Shown here: positions 6,628 through 62,507 of the stretch, one piece after another
Position numbering within the stretch: the first letter of the stretch is position 1
Layout of the letters: every line of letters starts with the position of its first letter
Source: a virus
Length of the DNA stretch: 64,000 nt
Strand: one strand, 5' to 3'
IMG/VR virus record: IMGVR_UViG_3300003309_000009
Span: 47,859 to 111,858 of that record
The notes under the pieces: generated by a model
Told to the model about the DNA's origin: nothing
Database searches by the model: none
The model's input: the letters and a program-made list of their open reading frames with translations, nothing else
Translations under genes and position numbers: made by a program

Positions 6628-7257
6628 ATGGACTCGCTTAAATCTGAAATTGCCCACATCATGGGACCAGCGTGGGAGATGATTACTCACTTTGCAGGCT
6701 TCTTTGCATATATGGTTTATATCTCAATTGCGTTGTTCATTGATATCGGTAAGCCTTCGATTCTGGCCTCTACGGAAACAGTTCCCTCTGGTAGTTTAAA
6801 ACTTATGGAATTGTTTTCAACAGTTGATGGGCATGTTTATTTCCTTACAGTAAATTTAGAAGATTTACTTAAGATTACTATTCTTGTTATTACTTTTTTA
6901 GCACTGTTAGTTCAGATATCATGGCAGGCTGTTCGCTTTCTAAGAAGAAAGTATTATGAACGTGCTATATGTAATCGAAGGAAGGAAGACAGAAATCAGT
7001 CTAAAATAGACACAGAGGCTATTTTAGAAGAACTTAGTAGACTTAGATCCATTGTCGATAAAAACCAGTCTGAGGGCGTTATAGAGCCTTCTAGAGATGA
7101 AGATGGGAATGTTCTCAAAGATGCATCAGTAAATCATGAAATAGACTCCCCAGAAGTAGAGTATGTCTTCAACGAGGAAGAAGTACCGGAGATAGTAGAA
7201 GTATCTGATGTGGTAGGTGAAAGTGATTCTAGTAAAAAAAAAATAAAGGCACTATAA
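6628..7257 (+). CDS. Membrane protein with two hydrophobic segments and an acidic C-terminal tail
   Basis: Hydrophobic stretches FAGFFAYMVYISIALFIDI and ILVITFLALLVQISW, followed by RRK and an E/D-rich tail. RBS GGGAGG. Confidence 0.75.
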   Translation: MDSLKSEIAHIMGPAWEMITHFAGFFAYMVYISIALFIDIGKPSILASTETVPSGSLKLMELFSTVDGHVYFLTVNLEDLLKITILVITFLALLVQISWQAVRFLRRKYYERAICNRRKEDRNQSKIDTEAILEELSRLRSIVDKNQSEGVIEPSRDEDGNVLKDASVNHEIDSPEVEYVFNEEEVPEIVEVSDVVGESDSSKKKIKAL

Positions 7258-7282
7258 AAGAGAGTCCCTAGGGACTCTCTTT
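7257..7282. terminator. Bidirectional terminator, perfect 26-bp palindrome
   Basis: AAAGAGAGTCCCTAGGGACTCTCTTT lies between convergent genes. Confidence 0.85.
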
Positions 7283-11863: not shown

Positions 11864-11906
11864 ATTGTTTTTCTAATTCCTCAATACCTCTAATAGATAC
11901 AACTAG

Positions 11907-11930
11907 ATAATGTACGAATAAGATTTTTTT
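11907..11930 (-). promoter_or_regulatory. Candidate phage promoter, class B (minus strand AAAAAAATCTTATTCGTACATTAT)
   Basis: Near-identical to 62483-62507, with core GTACATTAT also at 23583-23591. All three are upstream of minus-strand operons. Confidence 0.6.
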
Positions 11931-11954
11931 GATTATAAGTTCAATAGTCCGGAC

Positions 11955-14153: not shown

Positions 14154-14597
14154 TTAGATAACAGCCTGTTTAAACAGCGGCAATGAAATAAGCTCTTTTA
14201 AAGGCATTACTTTTGATAACGCTTTTAAAATCGTACGAAGATTATTCATTTCCTGAGGACTTTGTGAAAGCTCAACATTCGTTTCATAAATAACCAATGT
14301 CTTACTATCAGGACAACAAGCGCCCAACTCTGTGTAAGTGCCAGCTGAGGCCTTGCACGTGTCGTCACATATATGATAACTCCTTACAACATCTTCATCC
14401 TCGTTATAAGACAGATCATACTTACGCAATATCCCACATGAACCTTTATTTTGGTATGCGGTATCTCGTTCTATACCATTAAGTATATTAGCTGGGATTA
14501 AACGTTTGCGATTATGTTTTGTAAAACAGGATAGGGTAGGGTCTAATTCTTGAATGGCTGTAAATTTATCAAATGATAAAAAATAAATATCGAACAT
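14154..14597 (-). CDS. Head-associated protein (gp119-like)
   Basis: 147 aa immediately upstream of the MCP and divergent from DnaB, as recalled for chimalliviruses. Confidence 0.55.
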   Translation of the reverse strand: MFDIYFLSFDKFTAIQELDPTLSCFTKHNRKRLIPANILNGIERDTAYQNKGSCGILRKYDLSYNEDEDVVRSYHICDDTCKASAGTYTELGACCPDSKTLVIYETNVELSQSPQEMNNLRTILKALSKVMPLKELISLPLFKQAVI

Positions 14598-14646
14598 TAT
14601 CTTATACCTGAAAATGGTTTAGTATTAAGCTATAGGATTAAATAAA

Positions 14647-16182
14647 GTGATAGAAAATACAATTTTAACGCTAATCAAAAGTATTGGAATTATGTACTTC
14701 AATAATTTCTCGAAGGATTCCAATCAGAGTATCTATGATGAGGTACGTGATTCGTTAATAGATATTAAAGTTGAAAATAATAACGCGTCTATTGGCTCTG
14801 AAGATTCAGCCATTGATGCATTAAAAAGTACTGCGGAGTGGATGCTAAGTCAGGTTGTAGATACTGATTTTCAATTTAGTAGAGAAAACTTAATCACGCG
14901 ATTAAAAGTTAATTTGGTAGGTAATAACTTTTATATTGACACCGCTATTGAAATGCTGCGTGATGTTTCAATGATTGAGGCAGAAGCTCTAACTCGTGAA
15001 ATGTTAACTGAGTTAAGACATAATGCTAAGAAAGAAAGGTTAAGAAAAGCAATTCAGCAGGCGAATACTGAATTGAACTTTACCCAAAAGGTAGAAGATT
15101 ATAAAGTATTTGCGCAGAACATGATTAATATGCTGGAGGAGCATGCAGTAGCCTCCGGTAATGATGTAGGCGATCTTACCGGAAGTATTAGTACGGATGA
15201 TCCAGAAAGTATTATCCGTGCTTTAGAAAAGTCTCGTGATCAGTTCTCGGATGAGCGTACACTTAAAACCGGTTATCAATATTTAGATAGAGCATGTGGT
15301 GAACACAACGGTGTAGCTCGTGGCTACATGGTTAACTTTGGCGCTTTATCACACAACTATAAGTCTGGTATCCTTATTGACCTGTGTTTAAATATCCCTA
15401 GGTATAATGAACCGGTCATGATTGATGATACGAAGAAACCTTTAATTCTTCGTATTTCATTTGAGAACACAGTTGACCAAGACATTTTGATCATGTACAA
15501 GAAGTTGTATGAGATTGAATATAAGAAACGCATTAACATCCGCGATATTGATCCATATGAAGCGGCTACTTATGTTAGTGAATACTTCTCTAAACTGGGT
15601 TACACATTTAGACTTGAGCACCATGACCCAGGCAGACTATCAGCTTACGATGTAGTAAGCATTGTTGACAAATATGTACAGGATGGCTATGAGATCCATG
15701 CACTTGTTATCGACTATCTAACACTAACAGCAGATAATACCCCTGGGGTTAATCCAGACATTCGAATCATGAATGGCTATCAGATAGTACGTAATTACTG
15801 CCACCCAAAGGCTATTACTTGTTTCACAGCCCATCAATTATCAACTCAAGCAGAGGAAAGAGCGCGAGAGTTTCCAACGACACTAACCAAGGTTGTAAGG
15901 ACTGGTGGTTGGTATCAATATTGCAAAGGTCTTCATCAAAAGCTTGATTTGGAATTTGTAATGCACATTGTTAAACATGGAGATGGTCGGAAATATCTTA
16001 CAGTATCTCGTGGTAAACATCGTGGGGGCGAATTAACACCAGAGGCGCATTTACATTTTGTTTACCCATTTGAGGAATTTGGCGGTATTGTTCCAGATCA
16101 CGGTAAAGAAGAACCTGGTGGCTTAGATAAACTGCCAAGTATAGCAGCAGACAACCTAGATGATGGTTGGGAGGATGAATAA
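14647..16182 (+). CDS. dnaB: Replicative DnaB-like helicase (gp118-like)
   Basis: Variant Walker A GALSHNYKS, ISFENT, Walker B LVIDYL, TAHQLS and SRGKHRG. GTG start. Confidence 0.9.
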   Translation: MIENTILTLIKSIGIMYFNNFSKDSNQSIYDEVRDSLIDIKVENNNASIGSEDSAIDALKSTAEWMLSQVVDTDFQFSRENLITRLKVNLVGNNFYIDTAIEMLRDVSMIEAEALTREMLTELRHNAKKERLRKAIQQANTELNFTQKVEDYKVFAQNMINMLEEHAVASGNDVGDLTGSISTDDPESIIRALEKSRDQFSDERTLKTGYQYLDRACGEHNGVARGYMVNFGALSHNYKSGILIDLCLNIPRYNEPVMIDDTKKPLILRISFENTVDQDILIMYKKLYEIEYKKRINIRDIDPYEAATYVSEYFSKLGYTFRLEHHDPGRLSAYDVVSIVDKYVQDGYEIHALVIDYLTLTADNTPGVNPDIRIMNGYQIVRNYCHPKAITCFTAHQLSTQAEERAREFPTTLTKVVRTGGWYQYCKGLHQKLDLEFVMHIVKHGDGRKYLTVSRGKHRGGELTPEAHLHFVYPFEEFGGIVPDHGKEEPGGLDKLPSIAADNLDDGWEDE

Positions 16183-16185
16183 AAA

Positions 16186-16440
16186 ATGTTTTCGGTTATT
16201 ATTAATAGCAGGATGGAATCAACGCAGAAGCGGGAAGTAACTTCTTTAACCTGTGAGAACTTTAGAATTGTTGAAAAACCAAATGGTTTTCAACTTAACA
16301 TATTAAACGGTAAGAGTTGGGAAACTGTACCGACAAAACGGGGTGATGTTGTTAACATTTACGGGGACGGTTGCTTGGTTTTTTCAAGTGAATCTCAAGT
16401 AAATAAAAATGCCGAAACACCTTCCATAGTCATGCGATAG
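16186..16440 (+). CDS. Small hypothetical protein
   Basis: 84 aa, RBS GGGAGGA, tightly coupled to dnaB. Confidence 0.7.
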   Translation: MFSVIINSRMESTQKREVTSLTCENFRIVEKPNGFQLNILNGKSWETVPTKRGDVVNIYGDGCLVFSSESQVNKNAETPSIVMR

Positions 16441-16452
16441 GAGATCATCATT

Positions 16453-16935
16453 ATGTCAATTAAAGATCAATATAGTCGTCTAGATACCTGGCAGAAAGTT
16501 GTTGCTATTACTGTCGGGGCGATTGTCATCGTCACTAGTTGTTCAGCAGCATTAGGGTTAGAAATATCTAGCCCTGTATCAAAGGTCGAGTTTGAAAAAC
16601 ATGAGCAGGACTCTCGTTTAGATATCGAGGCCCTACAATGGCGTTCTCAAGAACACTACTTTGAGAATAAGCTAAAGAACCTTGAGATGCTTCATCGTAT
16701 TCAAGAGCAAGATCAGTACTATCGTAAAAAAGAAGAACGACAAATACGTAGGGAAATTCATCAGTATGAAAGCGAAAGTGGAAGTATCCCGCAATCCATT
16801 ATTGAAGATCAAGAAGATGCGAAAGCAGCGGTGGAAAAACTTAAGAGAGCTATCGAGTCAACGGAAAGTGAAATTAAAGAAACTAGGAAACAACTTAATT
16901 CCATCAAGATGCACAAATCAATGCCAAAAAAATAA
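16453..16935 (+). CDS. Membrane-anchored coiled-coil protein
   Basis: N-terminal hydrophobic VVAITVGAIVIVTSCSAALG followed by a long charged heptad region. RBS AGGAG. Confidence 0.75.
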   Translation: MSIKDQYSRLDTWQKVVAITVGAIVIVTSCSAALGLEISSPVSKVEFEKHEQDSRLDIEALQWRSQEHYFENKLKNLEMLHRIQEQDQYYRKKEERQIRREIHQYESESGSIPQSIIEDQEDAKAAVEKLKRAIESTESEIKETRKQLNSIKMHKSMPKK

Positions 16936-16977
16936 AGACACTATAAAAGAGAGTCCCTAGGGACTCTCTCTATGTTT
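16926..16977. repeat. Second copy of a 52-nt terminator cassette (50/52 identical to 7237-7288)
   Basis: AAAAAAATAAAG[A/G]CACTATAAAAGAGAGTCCCTAGGGACTCTCT[C/T]TATGTTT, aligned by eye. Confidence 0.9.
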
Positions 16978-17328
16978 AAGATCTGCTACCATCATAACTG
17001 AAATACAAGAGTTATCTTTCTTGGTACACAATCGCACATCGTTCGGTCTATAATACTTAACCACCATTGGATCACCCGGTAGCGCTCCGGTGACATCAAC
17101 GGTCAGATACTCAGCATTAGATGTTGTAATTAATAAAAAACCTAAGCTACTACTGGTATACTTAGAATCAATTTTAACATCTACAAACTTCCCAGCATCA
17201 AATATAACGATAGGCTCTACAAAGTTCTTATCAAATTTGATAAAAACAAACATTAGAAAGATAGCTACTACAGCTATAATTACCTTGATGAGACCCATGA
17301 AGCTTTTATTGTCGGTAAGGTTTTCCAT
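16957..17328 (-). CDS. Small single-pass membrane protein with a C-terminal Cys pair
   Basis: TM segment LIKVIIAVVAIFLMFVFI; C-terminal VRLCTKKDNSCISV. Confidence 0.7.
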   Translation of the reverse strand: MENLTDNKSFMGLIKVIIAVVAIFLMFVFIKFDKNFVEPIVIFDAGKFVDVKIDSKYTSSSLGFLLITTSNAEYLTVDVTGALPGDPMVVKYYRPNDVRLCTKKDNSCISVMMVADLKHRESP

Positions 17329-17674
17329 TATACCCCTCCAGGATATGTTGATAATTAATTACATTTACACAAATGTTAGACACATTGCAAATGGATATAT
17401 TGCTATTGACTCGTTTAACTAACTTTAAGTCTTCTCCTACCTGAAAGACTTCTTTAATACCTTTATTAAGATTCGTTTCAGCAAAGAGCTTATCTGTTAT
17501 TACCGATGATCTGTTCATCAGTTTTACTGAACCAACTGGTATACTCGATACTACACGAGTATCAGTCTTTCGTATGTTGTCAAGGCATACCAAGTTCAAT
17601 GCTATTAGAATGATTAATAATCCTAATATAAAAAGAACACTTTTAAGATTACCGCGTTCTTGATTTTCCCTCAT
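17306..17674 (-). CDS. Small single-pass membrane protein with a C-terminal Cys pair (probable paralog of 16957..17328)
   Basis: TM segment VLFILGLLIILIALNLVC; C-terminal ISICNVSNICVNV. Confidence 0.7.
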   Translation of the reverse strand: MRENQERGNLKSVLFILGLLIILIALNLVCLDNIRKTDTRVVSSIPVGSVKLMNRSSVITDKLFAETNLNKGIKEVFQVGEDLKLVKRVNSNISICNVSNICVNVINYQHILEGYNGKPYRQ

Positions 17675-17704
17675 ATCGATTTCCTATCAATTGATACTTA
17701 TTAT

Positions 17705-17811
17705 ATATCTGGCTCTTTAGTCAGACGCAGATAGTACTTCTCCACCTCCTAACTATATACGGGATGCTATCGCTACGGACAGAGGACCCATGTCGGGTCC
17801 TCTGTTTTTTT
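17705..17811 (+). ncRNA. Candidate small RNA with an anti-SD loop and intrinsic terminator
   Basis: Hairpin TCTGGCT-CTTT-AGTCAGA; stem ATAGT/ACTAT enclosing CTTCTCCACCTCCT; an 11-bp stem plus T7 oriented for the + strand inside a block of minus-strand genes. Confidence 0.4.
17779..17811 (+). terminator. Plus-strand intrinsic terminator with no plus-strand gene directly upstream
   Basis: ACAGAGGACCC-ATGTC-GGGTCCTCTGT followed by a T-run. There is no A-run on the left, so it is unidirectional. Confidence 0.75.
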
Positions 17812-17817
17812 CCGATT

Positions 17818-18561
17818 TTACGATTTTTGCATATGATGATGATTAAGAGTGTTAACGCGATCACAATCGTAAGTGATTAGCTTACCCAGATCAGCCACCA
17901 TTGAATCGAGATGTTCTTTAAAGGATAAGAATGCTTTAGTTAAAACATCTGTTGATAAGTGTGAGACTAATCGGTCATTAAAGAAATTAGCGACGGCTAT
18001 TTGACGGTTTGTACCATTCGAAAGAACAATATCTCGCATCACATTAATATCTTCATCTGAAACTTTATCACCCCAGTATTCTAAAAATGCGAAGCAATAC
18101 CGCTGGCGACCATATTCATTATCAGGACTAATGCAATCCAGATAGTCTTTAAAACAACCTACTCGAATTGCTTCACTAGCAGCGATGTCCACATAATGAC
18201 CTACAGACTTTTGAACAATCAACGCTGTATCTAACGAAATATTTTCCATTAACTTCTTATTGCGCTTAGTAAGGACAGCTACATTTCTTTTAGCAGTTGT
18301 TCCTGGTTCTACCGCTGCAGCGTAAATGGCTTTAGTTTCCGGAAGACTAAGGACATGCTTTTTAATACGCTTAGACAGAGCCTTGTGTCTGGGGAAGTGA
18401 TTAGTGGTATAAGATAGTGGGGATGCAATAAGACCATTATCATTGATAACCCCCTGGATATTATTCCAGGTTGCTTCTCCATCATTAATTAACTTATCAA
18501 TGCTATTTAAAATAACATCAACACGCTCTGCTTGCTTTAGTCGTTGTTCTTTTTTTGACAT
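17818..18561 (-). CDS. Hypothetical protein
   Basis: 247-aa ORF in the accessory operon. Confidence 0.75.
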   Translation of the reverse strand: MSKKEQRLKQAERVDVILNSIDKLINDGEATWNNIQGVINDNGLIASPLSYTTNHFPRHKALSKRIKKHVLSLPETKAIYAAAVEPGTTAKRNVAVLTKRNKKLMENISLDTALIVQKSVGHYVDIAASEAIRVGCFKDYLDCISPDNEYGRQRYCFAFLEYWGDKVSDEDINVMRDIVLSNGTNRQIAVANFFNDRLVSHLSTDVLTKAFLSFKEHLDSMVADLGKLITYDCDRVNTLNHHHMQKS

Positions 18562-18582
18562 GGTTTTTTCCTTACCAGTTAT

Positions 18583-19404
18583 TTATAGGGGGTATTTAAG
18601 ACGAACCTGATATTGGTCCTCGACCGCAGCCAGTGCCGCATCTTCAAAACTATTTTTGTCGTTCATGGCAAATGAGATATCTATATTAGAATTATTATCA
18701 CCACAGTTGTAGTCCATAGTACCTTTGCCGGGTGTTAATACAGGCTCCTCGCTAATGACATGATATCTATAACCTGTTACATTAAACCACCTCGAGTACC
18801 TTAATGTGACATTGTACTTAATTACAGTTAGAGTAACTTCTGTTTCAGGATATTCGTCATGTGCTGGAACAGTGCCAACAATGACCTTCCTACTGTCCTC
18901 TTCAGAAATATATTCATGACGGCCTTTTAACACATCCTCCGGTACAAAGCTATAATCCCACCCACGATGGGTGGAGAAGCCACCCTGGTCATGCCACCAG
19001 TAAAAACCACAGTGTTCCAAAGTTAACCGAAAGCCAAACTCCCGACCATGGTAACCATCTCTTTGAATCCAGCGGTGGAGTCGGGTGACAGGACCATCCA
19101 TTGAGAATCTAAAGCGCACTAACCATGGAATGGCTACGCAAAAGACAAACGTATCTTCAAAATCATCACCAATAACAACCTTGAGAGCAAGGGCATCATT
19201 CTTAGTGGAGAATATATTGAGAGAAACATCAAGGCTCCTACCACTTTGGCTATAATGAAGAATAAGTCGTTCATTTCTTACCATCTGAAACCAGACGCCT
19301 TCACCAAGTTTGCGAAGAGGGATGTTTATCATATTCGCCAGGAATAGAACAACATTAAATAGTCCAGAACGGACTAAGGTAAATGGGTTGATTATTTTCA
19401 TCAA
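18583..19404 (-). CDS. Hypothetical phage protein
   Basis: 273 aa, aromatic-rich, C-terminal PGKGxxxYxCGD motif that I recall from uncharacterised proteins of unrelated phages. Confidence 0.75.
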   Translation of the reverse strand: MMKIINPFTLVRSGLFNVVLFLANMINIPLRKLGEGVWFQMVRNERLILHYSQSGRSLDVSLNIFSTKNDALALKVVIGDDFEDTFVFCVAIPWLVRFRFSMDGPVTRLHRWIQRDGYHGREFGFRLTLEHCGFYWWHDQGGFSTHRGWDYSFVPEDVLKGRHEYISEEDSRKVIVGTVPAHDEYPETEVTLTVIKYNVTLRYSRWFNVTGYRYHVISEEPVLTPGKGTMDYNCGDNNSNIDISFAMNDKNSFEDAALAAVEDQYQVRLKYPL

Positions 19405-19412
19405 ATATTTCC

Positions 19413-20348
19413 TTAAATTAAACTGACAATTTCAGACTCTGCTAATTCTAATAACTCTTTGCGGGTTTTAAGACCGAAGATTTTGGTACTGTACTTATTA
19501 TCTTTGGTAGGCCACTCCCTTCTTAACTCAGTAAAGCCGAAAACTCGATATACTAATTTTACACCCACAAATAAATCTGTACCGGGAACCCACTTTAATT
19601 TTTTACCTTTATATTGAATGGTAATAAACGGATTTTTAAGCTTAGTGGGATTTAATAAATTGTGTAAAGTTAGCTCACGGGGAATTTTTTTATTGGGGCG
19701 ATACTTCTTCAGAACACGTTGTATCACAAAAGGATTGTGTCTGATAGCCAGTTTCATTTCACAGTCATGACTTTTAACTTTATGGATCTTTAACCTACCA
19801 TCATGGATATCAACAACCGTCAATCTACAGATGTTTGTGAATAGACCATCACCAGTATTACCATAAGAGGAGTAAAGTGTTTGAGTGAGTGAGAATTTCG
19901 GACTCTCAAGCCGAACACTGCCGTCTGGAGTAAATCGCTTAATAGGGGATCCATCTGTAAGACGCTGTCCGTTGTTCCAAAATTTCTGGACAATAATGCA
20001 TACTGGGGCAAATCCGGGTGACTTGAATACGTCTCGATAGTGTGGTCTTTTAATACGTGGTCTTTTAATTTTTACCATACCACCGCTAGTCCAGTGACCC
20101 TGAGCGTTGATAGTCGTCACCGTGTCCTTGGAAATCAATTGCCAGTATGGTAGTGTCATGGCAACTTTCCATGGTTCAACTAAAATACTGCCTTCGGGAT
20201 GATTCATTCTAACAAGGCCATCTTTGTTAGGTTTAATTTCCTTACCTGTTCGACCATTATAAATTTGTACTCGGTCCTCGTCTGTATAGGCAAAATAATG
20301 ACTCTTTCTACCATTACGAATAATAGTATTTTCCACTAAATATTCCAT
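19413..20348 (-). CDS. Basic protein, possibly a degenerate NUMOD4/HNH-endonuclease-derived DNA-binding protein
   Basis: K/R-rich. RVQIYNGRTGKEIKPNKDGLVRM resembles NUMOD4/HNH N-termini, but no intact H-N-H motif was seen. Confidence 0.45.
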   Translation of the reverse strand: MEYLVENTIIRNGRKSHYFAYTDEDRVQIYNGRTGKEIKPNKDGLVRMNHPEGSILVEPWKVAMTLPYWQLISKDTVTTINAQGHWTSGGMVKIKRPRIKRPHYRDVFKSPGFAPVCIIVQKFWNNGQRLTDGSPIKRFTPDGSVRLESPKFSLTQTLYSSYGNTGDGLFTNICRLTVVDIHDGRLKIHKVKSHDCEMKLAIRHNPFVIQRVLKKYRPNKKIPRELTLHNLLNPTKLKNPFITIQYKGKKLKWVPGTDLFVGVKLVYRVFGFTELRREWPTKDNKYSTKIFGLKTRKELLELAESEIVSLI

Positions 20349-20370
20349 AAGAATTTAATCCTACATTAAT

Positions 20371-20397
20371 TCACAATATATGTGATTTCAATTTTTT
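20371..20397 (-). promoter_or_regulatory. Candidate early promoter or operator (TCACA-ATATA-TGTGA dyad plus T-tract)
   Basis: Lies between a terminator and the 19413..20348 operon and resembles the 46.7 kb and 55.3 kb motif. Confidence 0.4.
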
Positions 20398-20404
20398 CCA
20401 ACAT

Positions 20405-20430
20405 AAAAGGGATCCGAAAGGATCCCTTTA
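20405..20430 (-). terminator. Intrinsic terminator
   Basis: AAAGGGATCC-GAAA-GGATCCCTTT; the same stem-loop core occurs at 54450-54469. Confidence 0.85.
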
Positions 20431-20802
20431 TAAACAGGCATTAATACCCAATAGCTTCGGAATTAACTGATCATAGACATGTATTAAACACTTGGCATCT
20501 TCTTTAACACCGCGCATAATACAGTACGATCTAACATCAGTAAATCCCGCAATAGTGCATATCGATATTACATCTTCTTTCCTTTCGTAGACATAGATAT
20601 CCAACAGACCTTTATCAGTAAACCGATATTCAACCCGTTGAAGATACACACTACCTATAGACCCAGTCATTTCTACATCGATAATCTCCAGCTCTTTAAA
20701 AATCCAATTATCTCTAAAGAGCATAAGGACAATGAAAAGCCAGGTGATGAACAACTGAACCAATATAGGTCGTTTAACACCCCCTTCCTCAATTGCCTTC
20801 AT
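20428..20802 (-). CDS. Small single-pass membrane protein with Cys residues
   Basis: TM segment ILVQLFITWLFIVLMLF; ISICT motif like 17306..17674. Confidence 0.65.
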   Translation of the reverse strand: MKAIEEGGVKRPILVQLFITWLFIVLMLFRDNWIFKELEIIDVEMTGSIGSVYLQRVEYRFTDKGLLDIYVYERKEDVISICTIAGFTDVRSYCIMRGVKEDAKCLIHVYDQLIPKLLGINACL

Positions 20803-20884
20803 AGCTAATCATCCCGTGCGAGTGTAACCAAGGTAGATAAGAAGAGTCTATCATAGACCACCTATTACCTATAGAATTGGCTCT

Positions 20885-21637
20885 CTACCGTACTAATTCG
20901 TAAATACGTCGCTTAATACCTACGTAAGTATTGCTGCATACATTTCGACAACACAGTGCGATTTGCAAAGCGTGAACCTGCTTCTCGTCACGACCATGCT
21001 TTGAGACATGTTCCTCTGATAATACTCGAGAGATGTTTTTCTCTAAACATAGCCAGTTATCCTCATCAAGATGACGAACACAAGTGATCAGTTGATAGGC
21101 TACTTCAATGGAGAAGTTTAACTCAACGTATTTATTTAAATAGTCTCTAGGGATATCATGGTAGCGGTTGTAAATATCCACAACTCCCTTCCAGCCAAAT
21201 TTTGAGTAGGTATAATCAAGTATCCCAACCAATTCACTTTTATCAATTTGAAGACGAGCAGCATTTAAATAATTCAAAATGTCATTTAACTCGGCACCAA
21301 AAAGCTCTAGGGGTGATGAATTTTCTTTGAAATTAACCCACGGATGTGTATGGTAGCGCTCTAGTATCTTTCTTTCACTATCCGTTGTTAACGGGGAGCG
21401 ATAAAGGTAGTCGATCGCCAACTGACACTCGGTACTTTGTGGGAGGTTATTATGAAGACACTCTTGTGTATTGTTAATGACCATTGAAACCTCAAAGTCA
21501 TTAAGGCGCTCATGTGGCATAAGTTTCCCCATCAGGCCCCGTCTATTTGAGACAGAGACAATTGGAGGACCTAAGGTCTTAAGATACTTTTCCTGCATCA
21601 GTTTGCCATGGATATTCTTATCCTTCATTGCTCTCAC
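20885..21637 (-). CDS. Helical hypothetical protein, paralog of 21618..22325
   Basis: Shares RSPLxT, DY...(K/R)(F/Y)GW..VV.IY and A(Y/F)(Q/H)L(I/L)T.VR.L with its neighbour. Confidence 0.75.
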   Translation of the reverse strand: MRAMKDKNIHGKLMQEKYLKTLGPPIVSVSNRRGLMGKLMPHERLNDFEVSMVINNTQECLHNNLPQSTECQLAIDYLYRSPLTTDSERKILERYHTHPWVNFKENSSPLELFGAELNDILNYLNAARLQIDKSELVGILDYTYSKFGWKGVVDIYNRYHDIPRDYLNKYVELNFSIEVAYQLITCVRHLDEDNWLCLEKNISRVLSEEHVSKHGRDEKQVHALQIALCCRNVCSNTYVGIKRRIYELVR

Positions 21638-22325
21638 CTCTGTCTTCTAAACGCGCATCAACATAAGTAATCATTTTCTCAACTGCTACTTTGTTAAAGC
21701 GACGAATTTCTTGGTTATGAATAAGTGCTAATTTTAAGGACTTTAAGGTCTCTAGGTTTGTACACTCATCTTCAATCACCTGTTCAGCCATTGTATCCAA
21801 CACATCTGTACCTAAAATACGAACACGTGTTAGTAAATGAAAGGCCAATGGTGTTGGACATGTAACATACTTTAGCAAATCTATCAATGGTCTACGGGAT
21901 AACTCGAGGTTCCATTCATAGATTTTAACAACAGTTTCCCAGCCATACCGATCTGTTACATAGTCGATAAATACCTCTAACCGCTCAACATCAACATGAG
22001 GGGTGATGTATGTACCAATCTTTATGCAGTCTTGTTGACTCATGTGAACATGGTCGCTAACTACTGAGGTCAGATCTTCATTTCTCTTTCTATGATCTGG
22101 GAACCCTAGTTCCTCATCCTCAATATCTACAAAGCCAATCTGCTCATGTGTGGTAAATAGCGGCGAGCGGATTATTGCACTAATGATAGATTTGTTGATA
22201 AGGTCCAAAGATACCGCCTTTGGATTAGCTAACATTTTTTCAATGGCAACTGGGTCGAGCTTCCACAGGGCATCTGCTGTTGCATTAGTAAATAGCGTAT
22301 AACGCTCTAAATCTTCAGTCTTCAT
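21618..22325 (-). CDS. Helical hypothetical protein, paralog of 20885..21637
   Basis: Same shared motifs; the two genes overlap by 20 nt. Confidence 0.75.
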   Translation of the reverse strand: MKTEDLERYTLFTNATADALWKLDPVAIEKMLANPKAVSLDLINKSIISAIIRSPLFTTHEQIGFVDIEDEELGFPDHRKRNEDLTSVVSDHVHMSQQDCIKIGTYITPHVDVERLEVFIDYVTDRYGWETVVKIYEWNLELSRRPLIDLLKYVTCPTPLAFHLLTRVRILGTDVLDTMAEQVIEDECTNLETLKSLKLALIHNQEIRRFNKVAVEKMITYVDARLEDRGESNEG

Positions 22326-22350
22326 ACATTCCTTCCAGGGTACAAAAAAT

Positions 22351-22377
22351 AAAAGGGCCCTTAGTAAGGGTCCTTTT
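22351..22377 (-). terminator. Intrinsic terminator
   Basis: AAAAGGGCCCTT-AGT-AAGGGTCCTTTT. Confidence 0.75.
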
Positions 22378-22401
22378 ACTGGTTCATTTTAAATGGAGCT
22401 A

Positions 22402-23514
22402 TTACTGCTCAACACCACCTTCAGTGTCTACAGTACCACCTTCATCTTCTGCGTTTGGATCATCTACCACAAGTGTATCCATGGCACTTGCGTTGGCGGT
22501 ACCCATCGTTGCTTGCTGTTGAATGAATTCTGCACGCTGTTCAGATAAATAAGCTACCACACGCTCAGATTGTAGAACTAACAAGAGTTCATCGATACGC
22601 TCGGCATCACCATTAGATAGCGAGTGAATATTTTGAACCACCACATCAATTTCTTCTTCTTTGGCAGCTTCGTCGTTAGCTACGGTTTCAAGATGCTCTT
22701 CTGTAAGGATCTTAGGGAAGCGCAATGCTAACACCGCATTAGTTAACCACTTATGACGATCAGCAACAGTGGTTACCAGCTCAACAACCGCATTTGGTGA
22801 TAGTAGTGGATTTGAAAACACCACCGTCATCAAAATAGGCGCAATATCAGAAATTTCACAAAGCTCTTCAACAATAGTGTCTTCTGGCAAAGACGCAGGT
22901 GTGCCACAGGCATAGATGTGATTGATTGCGGTCATAACACCACTGAATTCTACTTCGGCAGCCGCAATCTTAGTTTGAAGTTCCATGCTCTCGTTGTTAA
23001 GACGAGTCAATAAGTCCATGTCTTGATTTTCTTGCTCTGGGTTATCTTCAACATGCTTCATCCACTCAGCTTCAATTTCATTGATTCGAGCAGCATGTGC
23101 ATCAGACTCAGTCAAACCACGATCAGCTTCAACCGCCCACTCTAACACGGTATGGCGAAACTTAGCCATCTGTACATCACTGGCGTGACGCTGTAGGTGG
23201 GTGTAAAGGCGAGCAATACCATCGGCATTATGTTCACCGGCCTGAGTAGGTGATACCCACTGAGGCATTTCTTCGGCACTGATATTTGAAATAGCTTCAA
23301 CAATGTGTTCGATTACAAATGGACCACTAACTAACCAACGGGCTTTTTCAGAAATTGGAGCTTCTAACAACATTGTTTCAATTTGGTGTCGCACCGCTAC
23401 GTGATGAGGCTCATCCCAGTTACCAAAGTCAGCAGAGTAATCGCTTAGTAGTGTAGCAAGGATATCTGAAACGTTTGTCTGGGTTGAGATTTTCTCGAGT
23501 AAAAATTCACTCAT
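22402..23514 (-). CDS. Acidic helical hypothetical protein, monocistronic
   Basis: 370 aa with RBS AAGGA, a class B promoter motif upstream and its own terminator downstream. Confidence 0.8.
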   Translation of the reverse strand: MSEFLLEKISTQTNVSDILATLLSDYSADFGNWDEPHHVAVRHQIETMLLEAPISEKARWLVSGPFVIEHIVEAISNISAEEMPQWVSPTQAGEHNADGIARLYTHLQRHASDVQMAKFRHTVLEWAVEADRGLTESDAHAARINEIEAEWMKHVEDNPEQENQDMDLLTRLNNESMELQTKIAAAEVEFSGVMTAINHIYACGTPASLPEDTIVEELCEISDIAPILMTVVFSNPLLSPNAVVELVTTVADRHKWLTNAVLALRFPKILTEEHLETVANDEAAKEEEIDVVVQNIHSLSNGDAERIDELLLVLQSERVVAYLSEQRAEFIQQQATMGTANASAMDTLVVDDPNAEDEGGTVDTEGGVEQ

Positions 23515-23582
23515 GTTTATTTCCTTTTAGAGGGTTTTAATTAAGATCTTAAGTATTGGACATAATGTCCATCACCAGTTAG

Positions 23583-23591
23583 ATAATGTAC
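23583..23591 (-). promoter_or_regulatory. Class B promoter core GTACATTAT
   Basis: Shares TAGATAATGTACGA (plus strand) with 11904-11917. Confidence 0.5.
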
Positions 23592-28451: not shown

Positions 28452-28497
28452 CTTCTTTTACCTTTTTAGGACGCTATATACAAAGAGAGTGCGGAAT

Positions 28498-28525
28498 AAA
28501 AGAGTACACTAATGTGTACTCTTTT
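28498..28525 (-). terminator. Intrinsic terminator
   Basis: AAAAGAGTACAC-TAAT-GTGTACTCTTTT. Confidence 0.85.
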
Positions 28526-28535
28526 AAATTTACAA

Positions 28536-32271: not shown

Positions 32272-32320
32272 AATAGATTCCTATTATTAGTAAATTAGTT
32301 TAGGCTATATGATTCGGGTA

Positions 32321-32349
32321 AAAAGACCTCCCGTAATGGGAGGTCTTTT
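32321..32349 (-). terminator. Intrinsic terminator
   Basis: AAAAGACCTCCC-GTAAT-GGGAGGTCTTTT. Confidence 0.85.
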
Positions 32350-32368
32350 ATGAACTTAGAAAACTACA

Positions 32369-40168: not shown

Positions 40169-40194
40169 ATGAGAGTCCCCTAGGGGACTCTCAT
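40169..40194. terminator. Perfect palindrome terminator, related to the 7.3 kb and 17 kb cassette
   Basis: ATGAGAGTCCCCTAGGGGACTCTCAT at a convergent junction. Confidence 0.75.
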
Positions 40195-43833: not shown

Positions 43834-45564
43834 ATGAGTGATCAATCTATACGACGTGAATTTATCCACGGAACCTATGGTCGTAATAGAAACCATAAAC
43901 ATGAAGATGTAGTATTAGTAAAAGAACATTTACACTATCCAGATGGAACCATTAAACCCAACCTTCGGGTCATTAAAAACTACCAAAGGCCTTTTTGGAT
44001 AACCAAACCTGAATTTAGAGACCATAAGGATAAAAAAGAGTTTGAGGTAGTTTCTAAGTTAGAGAAATATACATCTACTCAAGCGGCATTGGCCGACAAT
44101 ATTAAAAGAGCATTGGGAATTCGAGGTCAGTATACCCCCTTACGGGAATTGAGAGAGAACCAATATGTTTACGGCATTGATATTGCTACTCCGGTATTGA
44201 TTGCCAAAGAATATAAGGATCTAGAACCTGATCTTTCTTCGGACTCAACCTTAGCGGTAATGGACTATGAGACCGATGTCTTAAACGGCACTGAGAAGAT
44301 TGTTTCTGGCTCGATTAGCATGAAGGATAAATGTGTAATTGCCGTTACACGGGACTTCATGAACAATCGTACGGATCAGGAGATTATTGAAGGTACCTTG
44401 GCTAAGGCTGAGGAACTGATCCCCACAGAATTAAAAGAGCGTGGGATTAATCTCCATGAGATTATGGATGGTGAGGGTGGTATTGACATCCATGTCTGCG
44501 AAAACAACTTAGAAGTTGTTAGAAAGCTAATGGGGTATGCGCATAAATGGATGCCTGATTACTTATGTTTTTGGAACATGAAGTTCGATATCGGTAAAAT
44601 CATAGAGGCGTGTGAAGAACACAACTATGACCCAGCTCATGTCTTATCCGATCCGAGGGTACCACCAGCATACCGTCACTATAACTGGCTGCCTGATTCT
44701 GATTTTAAAGAAAACCCAGATGGTAACCGAACAACGAAGCATCCCGCGGATCAGTGGCATAAGCTAGAGTCAATGGCAAGCTTTGTCTGTATAGACTTAA
44801 TGTCATTATTTAAGAAAGCTCGTGTAACAGATCAACAAAGACCTTCATATTCATTAGATGCCATCCTTGATGAGATTCTAAAGATTAGAAAGTTAAAGAT
44901 TAAAGAGCTTGAAGGCGTCGTAGGGCTTGATTGGCACATTCGGATGCAACGTAAGTATAAATTCGAATACTTAGTCTATAACGCCTTCGATTGTATCTCT
45001 GTAGAAATGTTGGATGAGGAAACCGGGGACTGCTCTAAAGGCTTTAGGGGTTCATTAGGCATCTCACAGCCAACACGATACGCCAGTAACCCTAAGCGTC
45101 TAGCCGATGATCTCCATTTCGAATATCTTGAGAAAGGTAAAGTAATTGCCTGTACTTCTGCGGATATGACCGATGAGTTATGTAATGAGACCCCTATTAA
45201 GAAAGGATGGATTATTACACTGGCTTCTGAACTGGAGCATAACATCGGTGTGAAATGTCTATTAGAATTCCCGATGATTCGGACAAACATTTCACTACAT
45301 GCATTTGATGTTGATATTAAGTCTGCCTATCCTACCGGGGGTTCTACATTAAATGTTAGTAAGTCTACTAAGTACATGGAACTATGTAGTATCATCGGAC
45401 TTGATGAATATACAACACGTGCAATAGGTATCAATCTTACCAACACACCAGTTAATGCATTAGAGATCGCGGCAGCCGTTTACGACTACCCAGATCCTTT
45501 TGACGTATTAGCTGCGTTTGAGGAAGATATTGCTAATGAACAAGAAAAAAATATAGCGGCATAA
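43834..45564 (+). CDS. Split family-B DNA polymerase, exonuclease-containing subunit (gp82-like)
   Basis: ExoI DYETD, ExoII FWNMKFD, ExoIII YNAFD and polymerase motif A DVDIKSAYP. Motifs B and C are absent, so the partner subunit lies elsewhere. Confidence 0.85.
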   Translation: MSDQSIRREFIHGTYGRNRNHKHEDVVLVKEHLHYPDGTIKPNLRVIKNYQRPFWITKPEFRDHKDKKEFEVVSKLEKYTSTQAALADNIKRALGIRGQYTPLRELRENQYVYGIDIATPVLIAKEYKDLEPDLSSDSTLAVMDYETDVLNGTEKIVSGSISMKDKCVIAVTRDFMNNRTDQEIIEGTLAKAEELIPTELKERGINLHEIMDGEGGIDIHVCENNLEVVRKLMGYAHKWMPDYLCFWNMKFDIGKIIEACEEHNYDPAHVLSDPRVPPAYRHYNWLPDSDFKENPDGNRTTKHPADQWHKLESMASFVCIDLMSLFKKARVTDQQRPSYSLDAILDEILKIRKLKIKELEGVVGLDWHIRMQRKYKFEYLVYNAFDCISVEMLDEETGDCSKGFRGSLGISQPTRYASNPKRLADDLHFEYLEKGKVIACTSADMTDELCNETPIKKGWIITLASELEHNIGVKCLLEFPMIRTNISLHAFDVDIKSAYPTGGSTLNVSKSTKYMELCSIIGLDEYTTRAIGINLTNTPVNALEIAAAVYDYPDPFDVLAAFEEDIANEQEKNIAA

Positions 45565-45591
45565 AAGAGACTCCCATTTGGGAGTCTCTTT
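45564..45591. terminator. Bidirectional terminator
   Basis: AAAGAGACTCCC-ATTT-GGGAGTCTCTTT at a convergent junction. Confidence 0.85.
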
Positions 45592-46658: not shown

Positions 46659-46683
46659 CTCCTGATATCGATTCCAGATCCAT

Positions 46684-46704
46684 TATCACATGAGTAATAT
46701 GTAA
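46684..46704 (-). promoter_or_regulatory. Class A candidate early promoter TTACATATTACTCATGTGATA
   Basis: Exact 21-nt repeat of 55257-55277; contains TATTAC, the reported phiKZ early promoter core. Confidence 0.7.
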
Positions 46705-55096: not shown

Positions 55097-55126
55097 TCCT
55101 TCCTGTAAGGGGATTTTTTTTAAATC

Positions 55127-55222
55127 TTAAGCTTCATCAACGCCAGTTCCTAACCACTCTATAAATAAAAAGAGTAAGGTAAAGAAACCAACAACTGCTA
55201 AAACATTTAATATTAATTCCAT
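55127..55222 (-). CDS. Unannotated 31-aa single-pass membrane peptide
   Basis: MELILNVLAVVGFFTLLFLFIEWLGTGVDEA; AGGAG 8 nt upstream; first ORF after the class A promoter. Confidence 0.7.
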   Translation of the reverse strand: MELILNVLAVVGFFTLLFLFIEWLGTGVDEA

Positions 55223-55256
55223 AGCATATTCTCCTATGTTATGATATTTCCTACGA

Positions 55257-55277
55257 TATCACATGAGTAATATGTAA
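55257..55277 (-). promoter_or_regulatory. Class A candidate early promoter, second copy
   Basis: TATCACATGAGTAATATGTAA on the + strand, identical to 46684-46704. Confidence 0.7.
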
Positions 55278-55300
55278 ATAAAAAAATAATGATTCGAAGA

Positions 55301-55323
55301 AAAAAGGGTCCAAGCGGACCCTT
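55301..55323 (-). terminator. Intrinsic terminator ending the RNAP-helicase operon
   Basis: AAAAAGGGTCC-AAGC-GGACCCTT. Confidence 0.8.
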
Positions 55324-55324
55324 A

Positions 55325-62406: not shown

Positions 62407-62482
62407 ATTTTCTCCTATTATATTTTATCATTACACTAGACACTACCTAATTTTAATTACAAATAGTATGCGTAGCATTTTA

Positions 62483-62507
62483 ATAATGTACAAATAAAGA
62501 TTTTTTT
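62483..62507 (-). promoter_or_regulatory. Class B candidate promoter for the nvRNAP-helicase operon
   Basis: Minus strand AAAAAAATCTTTATTTGTACATTAT, near-identical to 11907-11930. Confidence 0.6.

Follow-up and report, generated by a model that had tools for sequence, protein, structure and literature searches.

Organization of the locus

Two ORFan genes on the minus strand are separated at this locus by a non-coding gap of 143 nt (17675-17817; all coordinates refer to the window, the whole stretch of 64,000 nucleotides that was analysed). As described in the initial annotation, the gap lies between minus-strand genes, here the open reading frames 17818-18561 and 17306-17674, and the other features which that annotation had listed for it are likewise present in the sequence. 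The first frame encodes a 247-aa protein without a relative among the searched proteins. The second encodes a 122-aa ORFan with an N-terminal membrane anchor; its Shine-Dalgarno (SD) sequence, AGGAAA, lies 5 nt before the ATG. A third minus-strand ORFan gene (16957-17328) encodes a 123-aa protein, which also carries an N-terminal membrane anchor and is not a paralogue of the 122-aa protein. The base composition of this membrane-gene module has no clear foreign signature. Two further reading frames were rejected as genes: a 38-aa plus-strand frame in the gap passes through the terminator described below, and a 47-aa minus-strand frame at the gap overlaps the 247-aa gene.

The window belongs to a 128-kb IMG/VR contig from a coral metagenome, with an estimated completeness of 47%. 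The phage is also covered by two other assemblies from the same coral-metagenome run, one of which spans 221 kb. The locus is base-for-base identical in the three assemblies, all of which come from this one run. Judged by its gene content, which is phiKZ-like and includes a PhiKZ_MCP capsid gene, a divergent DnaB-type helicase and head-tail joining genes, the phage is a phiKZ-like jumbo phage. Its capsid protein is at most 30% identical to that of any cultured phage (Vibrio jumbo phages). The closest metagenomic helicases are at most 49% identical, and the accessory genes are not common to them. By these sequence comparisons the lineage is far from the laboratory models and very distant from phiKZ. 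The window was searched for tRNA and tmRNA genes, and none were found.

Blastn of the locus against the phage database gave zero matches. The 247-aa and 122-aa proteins were absent from the viral contigs searched and returned only themselves from a clustered index of 5.8 billion proteins; for the 247-aa protein, a full HMMER scan of 1.84 billion representative proteins also gave the self-match only. Pfam and PHROGs contained no family for the genes neighbouring the gap. The exact hairpin pattern of the gap had zero matches in the viral contigs, and the 143-nt gap has no paralogue elsewhere in the contig. Nothing in Rfam reached the gathering threshold; the best hit was Xoo2, with 19.2 bits against the 45 needed, and it covered the terminator portion only. 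A 17-nt word from the loop discussed below did match in two unrelated contigs, one of them a giant-virus bin, which was judged to be chance at that length.

A terminator on the plus strand

The gap holds an intrinsic terminator at 17777-17811. Its stem (17779-17789 / 17795-17805) is a perfect GC-rich helix of 11 bp, 7 of them G-C pairs, or of 13 pairs if two G-U pairs are counted. The 5-nt loop is ATGTC, and the stem runs into an unbroken T7 (17805-17811), the end of which is separated by 7 nt from the stop of the 247-aa gene. The predicted dG is -19 kcal/mol for the 10-bp core, or lower. On the plus strand the element thus has the composition of an intrinsic terminator, namely a stem of at least five GC-rich pairs, a loop within 3-8 nt and a U-tract directly 3' of the hairpin. 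Read on the minus strand, A7 precedes the hairpin and TCCGTAGCG follows it (the bases after the hairpin are UCCGUAGCG). Because this side has no U-tract, the terminator is a plus-strand one only, and the claim of the initial annotation that a strong terminator works on this strand alone was borne out by the 11-bp hairpin and the one-sided T7.

A rule-based terminator scan listed nothing in the gap; our own scan, which folds the sequence before each T-run, does find the terminator. In our reading it was missed by the rule-based scan because the G-T extension of the stem takes two T's and leaves four in the tail window. Among the 29 sites in the 128-kb contig at which a hairpin is combined with a T-run, it is the most stable. 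Sites of this kind with a dG of -15 or lower occur twelve times in intergenic DNA and not once in about 244 kb of coding strand, and since they are missing from coding DNA we regard the terminator as real and beyond chance. The 107-nt candidate RNA of the initial annotation has a z-score of -4.9 as a whole, which is due to the terminator and not to the part upstream of it. The terminator is the sole feature of the gap that is beyond chance.

Orientation relative to the genes

We compared the orientation of all intergenic hairpins in the contig that have at least seven perfect pairs (34 hairpins). A one-sided A- or T-run pointing with the adjacent minus-strand gene was found in 12 of the 34; nine of these have a minus-strand gene on either side, and the other three belong to convergent junctions. 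About seven hairpins between minus-strand genes are symmetric, with an A-run before the stem and a T-run after it. In exactly one of the 34 hairpins the T-run is directed against both neighbours, and this is the terminator of the gap 17675-17817. Its position, 7 nt past a stop codon, is the usual one for terminators of this phage, but it is mirror-inverted. The same rule was seen in four related loci (66 kb), where every intergenic terminator points with the adjacent gene upstream of it and none is oriented against both flanking genes.

The terminator in the gap is thus a clear exception to the rule that the terminators of this phage point with the genes. As the terminators in the contig and in its relatives follow gene direction, T-runs evidently matter in this clade, and the one in the gap is set for the plus strand. 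That a plus-only terminator breaks this rule makes a plus-strand RNA with its end near 17811 plausible. By geometry, such an RNA would overlap the leader of the 122-aa gene and would be antisense to it. Judged from this arrangement, some antisense RNA probably ends at the terminator.

The upstream hairpins and the anti-Shine-Dalgarno loop

Upstream of the terminator, the plus strand is predicted to fold into a 7-bp hairpin with one G-U pair (17708-17725) and an imperfect helix of 13 pairs (17727-17773) that has two G-U pairs, one bulge and one internal loop. The latter consists of the helix 17727-17736 / 17765-17773, extended by four further pairs, and its 18-nt loop holds CACCTCCT at 17743-17750. 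In this predicted MFE fold CACCUCCU is left unpaired in the loop. The initial annotation had described both helices and the loop, and they are what the MFE fold contains; the alternative pairing TATCTG/CAGATA, which it had also noted, exists as well and is the preferred fold on the minus strand. Neither helix goes beyond chance. When the 79 nt upstream of the terminator (17700-17778) were shuffled, 20 of 200 shuffles folded as well as the plus strand (z = -1.49), and the minus-strand fold of the same body is at chance, too (z = -0.45). The three G-U pairs of the two upstream helices are possible on the plus strand only.

From these features the initial annotation had proposed a candidate small RNA of about 100 nt presenting an anti-SD loop. 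Small RNAs that bind SD sites through C-rich loops are RNAIII and RsaE of S. aureus and RoxS of B. subtilis, in which the motif usually occurs in several copies. The candidate in the gap is similar to these RNAs in that an intrinsic terminator follows a loop with CCUCC which is predicted to be unpaired. It differs from them in having a single motif, which is at chance frequency, a fold like that of shuffled sequences, no preference for phage targets and no promoter that could be found. It shows neither a non-random, multi-copy C-rich structure nor, as far as phage genes are concerned, complementarity to start regions beyond chance.

The frequency of the motif can be given from both strands. 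The window has one copy of CACCTCCT where 1.39 are expected, and AGGAGG occurs 22 times in the contig, mostly inside genes, where base composition predicts 35. For the targets, the loop region (17736-17764) was paired in silico with the 121 start regions of the contig, and the duplex energies were compared with those of 60 shuffled loops. The mean was -8.2 kcal/mol for the loop and -8.0 for the shuffled loops, 24 of which (of 60) were as good or better, and the number of strong pairings with start regions was the same as for shuffled loops. The best partner of the loop, the start region of 16186-16440, reached -20 kcal/mol, a value equalled by 27 of 150 shuffles. The ribosome-binding sites of the phage are mostly AGGA, AAGG or GGAG, and GGAGG was found in only four of the 121 genes. 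The idea that the loop acts as a seed on phage ribosome-binding sites is therefore not supported, as its pairing with these start regions is no better than that of shuffled loops. With the body fold and the 8-mer at chance and no promoter found, the proposed small RNA itself fared no better. On the present evidence the CCUCC-containing loop is incidental.

The loop bases on the sense strand

The same bases can be read on the strand of the genes. There, GTATATAG is followed by TTAGGAGGTGG (17741-17759, minus strand), 76 nt upstream of the start of the 122-aa gene. The initial annotation had pointed out that AGGAGG has no properly spaced start on this strand, and indeed there is no start codon 4-13 nt after it. 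In the relative L006, GTATAGGAGGTG is located directly before a gene start, which makes a sense-strand meaning of these bases no less plausible than an antisense one. Two other gaps of the window (28452-28535 and 32272-32368) have the order hairpin, 15-22 nt, (C/T)ATATAG, leader, gene. TATAG, which is 3.6-fold enriched in intergenic DNA, was considered as a promoter class and not adopted, its enrichment being equal in both orientations (22 vs 22); for the same reason no strand can be called from it.

Promoters

A scan of the gap for sigma-70-type promoters found none on either strand. As phages of the phiKZ type are expected to use their own RNA polymerases (PMC10914365, PMC8244752), the promoters of the phage itself have to be considered as well. 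A class of phage promoters (class A) was identified de novo. It consists of an A/T-rich stretch with AATCA, 14-17 nt, [G/T]TACAT[A/T]T and, about 9 nt on, TG; often, [T/C]GTAGGA comes a further 14-24 nt on. The minus strand has twelve intergenic copies, of which eleven precede a called gene of that strand and the twelfth lies at the contig end. In relatives the class is conserved as TTTCA[A/G]ATACAT. It resembles the middle promoter of phiKZ, an A-rich repeat with TACT about 22 nt before the start site (PMC8244752). The copies within the window are located at 11884-11913, 20336-20365, 23560-23589, 46673-46702, 55246-55275 and 62460-62489, all on the minus strand, and further copies are present in the contig beyond the window.

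An identical promoter sequence of 35 nt precedes two different genes (11884-11931 and, in window numbering though outside the window, 67134-67181). Behind the class A promoter in the 228-nt minus-strand gap 55097-55324 there is an uncalled frame (about 30 codons) that follows TAGGAG and has a hydrophobic core; by its sequence it may encode a small membrane peptide.

The highest class A matrix scores within the gap 17675-17817 were -3.0 (plus strand) and -2.5 (minus strand), compared with at least 15.8 at true sites. The best plus-strand matrix score anywhere upstream of the terminator was 7.7, at 17343. This class-A-like site is merely among the 39 best-scoring positions of the contig and was not taken as a promoter. 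As no plus-strand promoter was detected in or next to the gap, a distant origin of a putative transcript is favoured over a self-contained unit. About a fifth to a third of the mapped promoters of phiKZ and 201phi2-1 have no motif (PMC10914365, PMC11512511), and for this reason the negative result weakens a local unit rather than excluding it.

The accessory island and its convergent junction

The gap is part of an accessory island (16186-23514) between the helicase and a conserved 447-aa gene. In the phage studied here this island comprises eleven ORFan genes; in the relative L009 it has zero genes, and in the other relatives four to nine. Its genes are almost never common to relatives, the sole match being a weak one (E 0.006) for the 124-aa gene. 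Extra plus-strand genes after the helicase were found in the studied phage only, among the relatives compared.

The helicase operon (14647-16935, plus strand) is convergent with the minus-strand membrane genes. Upstream of it lies a class-A-like promoter on the plus strand (14576-14605, matrix score 14.8), so that the operon has a recognisable promoter. The last gene of this operon is the nearest plus-strand gene upstream of the terminator. It ends at 16935, 840 nt away and behind another hairpin, and no nearer plus-strand promoter was found. The hairpin at this junction (16948-16969, 9 bp) has only moderate T-runs on both sides, weaker than the T-tails of its sister junctions, and read-through on the plus strand is therefore possible. 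None of the other convergent junctions in the contig has a comparable back-up terminator, which counts against the reading favoured below.

The convergent junctions 7257-7282, 16948-16969, 40169-40194 and 45564-45591 reuse a near-identical palindromic hairpin (GAGAGTCCC..GGGACTCTC and close variants). A 50-kb Logan contig ends beside the copy at 16948; perhaps this repeat breaks the assembly graph.

The corresponding accessory island of L006 contains a gene-less unit (L006:7926-8136, minus strand) with a class-A-like promoter, a GC-rich body of about 170 nt (MFE -79.6, z -4.5) and a terminator made of a long hairpin and U10, the 7-nt apical loop of which is CACCUCC. This unit runs with the genes. 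A 47-aa ORF called in it looks spurious, and it has no Rfam match. Judged by these sequence features, it is a better small-RNA candidate than the element in the window.

Possible role of the terminator

The reading we favour, with a probability of roughly 0.4, is that the element is a working plus-strand terminator which stops transcription running antisense through the two membrane-protein genes and their leader. Plus-strand transcription would cross these genes and the leader and arrive at the terminator, where it would be halted before it meets the long minus-strand operon head-on. Its source would most simply be the helicase operon, assuming read-through past the moderate hairpin at 16948-16969; alternatively, an unrecognised start site could lie within the antisense region. 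The resulting antisense RNA, up to about 850 nt long, would overlap the messages of the membrane genes and, as in an excludon, could reduce their expression.

Known systems offer partial parallels to such an arrangement. In the Listeria excludon, a long antisense 3' extension of an operon covers oppositely oriented genes. A 3' operon extension over opposite genes that ends at a dedicated terminator would be common to both cases, the difference being that in the studied phage read-through at the junction hairpin is a matter of inference. The OOP RNA of phage lambda is a short RNA with its own intrinsic terminator and a defined promoter that overlaps the 3' end of cII. The putative RNA of the gap would likewise have its own terminator, run against two co-directional neighbours and overlap one message. 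In contrast to OOP, no promoter was found for it, and the overlap would involve a 5' leader instead of a 3' end.

By its sequence the element fits a known kind, the antisense-oriented terminators of phages. Of the terminators mapped by ONT-cappable-seq in six virulent Pseudomonas phages, 9% are oriented antisense to genes, and for phiKZ four antisense RNAs were given a defined TSS (PMC10914365). The terminator of the gap shares with those of phiKZ, PAK_P3 and others that it looks factor-independent, is directed against the local gene direction and belongs to a phiKZ-type genome (PMC10914365). The Pseudomonas phage examples have measured 3' ends and mapped starts (PMC10914365), whereas here the element is deduced from the nucleotide sequence and no promoter is recognisable.

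Alternatively, the terminator could be a relic. It would once have closed a plus-strand cassette convergent with the 247-aa gene, been orphaned when the membrane genes and their leader were inserted or swapped, and now have no selected role. We consider this rather unlikely, in spite of several points that agree with it: the accessory island between the helicase and the 447-aa gene turns over fast (zero to eleven genes), extra plus-strand genes after the helicase are found in the studied phage alone, all genes around the terminator are ORFans, and the hairpin, at 7 nt from the stop of the 247-aa gene, is in the usual place for a convergent-junction hairpin. Yet the perfect 11-bp stem and the unbroken T7 show no decay, and as no relative keeps either state, the event is not reconstructable. 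A relic would also still stop antisense transcription, so that it differs from the favoured reading only in whether such transcription exists and matters.

The small RNA proposed in the initial annotation can be put in a more general form, as a discrete plus-strand RNA of about 95-110 nt with its own, unrecognised promoter near 17690-17710, acting in cis on the leader or in trans through the CCACCUCCU loop on strong SD sites. A plus-only terminator needs a transcript, CACCUCCU is unpaired in the MFE fold, and the G-U pairs of the upstream helices can form on the plus strand only. Chimalliviruses are known to have short promoter-to-terminator RNAs: 201phi2-1 has 11 of them, three intergenic (PMC11512511), and phiKZ has 17 sRNA candidates derived from 5'UTRs (PMC10914365). 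The gap resembles these as a gene-less stretch of a jumbo phage that ends in a strong terminator, and the unit in L006, gene-less and highly structured with CACCUCC in its terminator loop, is a further precedent. However, most of the chimallivirus RNAs (8 of 11 in 201phi2-1 and all 17 candidates of phiKZ) have the same direction as the gene downstream of them and result from early termination after a mapped promoter (PMC11512511, PMC10914365). The terminator of the gap faces against both neighbours, and neither a class A promoter nor any other recognisable class of promoter is present in the gap. Moreover, the body fold has a z-score of only -1.49, the single C-rich motif is no more frequent than expected by chance, the loop pairs with phage start regions no better than shuffled loops do and meets GGAGG in just four of 121 genes, and there is neither an Rfam family nor a paralogue in the contig. 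A discrete RNA of this kind is unlikely on this balance. Of the earlier interpretation, the plus-only terminator thus stands and an antisense RNA is plausible; the anti-SD small RNA found no support in the tests that were run.

The hairpin could also be an element of the minus-strand mRNA. Lacking U's on this strand, it would allow read-through into the membrane genes and, as a 3' barrier, keep the processed upstream message stable, the T7 being incidental. The SD-like AGGAGGUGG behind TATAG would then be a docking and stabilising site for ribosomes in the 5' leader, of the STAB-SD kind. The hairpin is indeed found where the co-directional terminators sit, 2-24 nt past a stop codon. The same order of hairpin, (C/T)ATATAG, leader and gene recurs in 28452-28535 and 32272-32368, TATAG is 3.6-fold enriched in intergenic DNA, GTATAGGAGGTG directly precedes a start codon in L006, and the AGGAGG of the gap is on the sense strand of the genes. 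What this leaves unexplained is the A7/T7 asymmetry, the exact mirror of that of the co-directional terminators. The TATAG enrichment (22 vs 22) indicates no strand, the minus-strand body folds at chance (z -0.45) and the SD-like site has no start codon behind it. The STAB-SD mechanism is one of Gram-positive bacteria. Taken together, we regard a function in the minus-strand message as quite doubtful.

It is highly improbable that the gap encodes a stand-alone phage RNA (about 100 nt) which reproduces the 16S rRNA 3' tail (CACCUCCU) in an open loop and soaks up the strongest SD sites for host shut-off, in which case host messages would be hit harder than those of the phage, as the phage genes mostly have weaker AGGA or GGAG sites.

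Implications

The anti-SD 8-mer in the predicted loop is at chance level in the studied phage, and such a motif alone should not be taken as the seed of a small RNA unless a promoter, conservation or target enrichment accompanies it. If the favoured reading is true, it would be useful for the annotation of uncultured phage genomes, and the element could serve as a unidirectional terminator part. It would then mean that jumbo phages place dedicated terminators against the gene flow inside their accessory islands, which would not be a new principle. If a plus-strand RNA does end at the terminator, this would be a further case of antisense control or transcriptional insulation in a jumbo phage with its own RNA polymerases.
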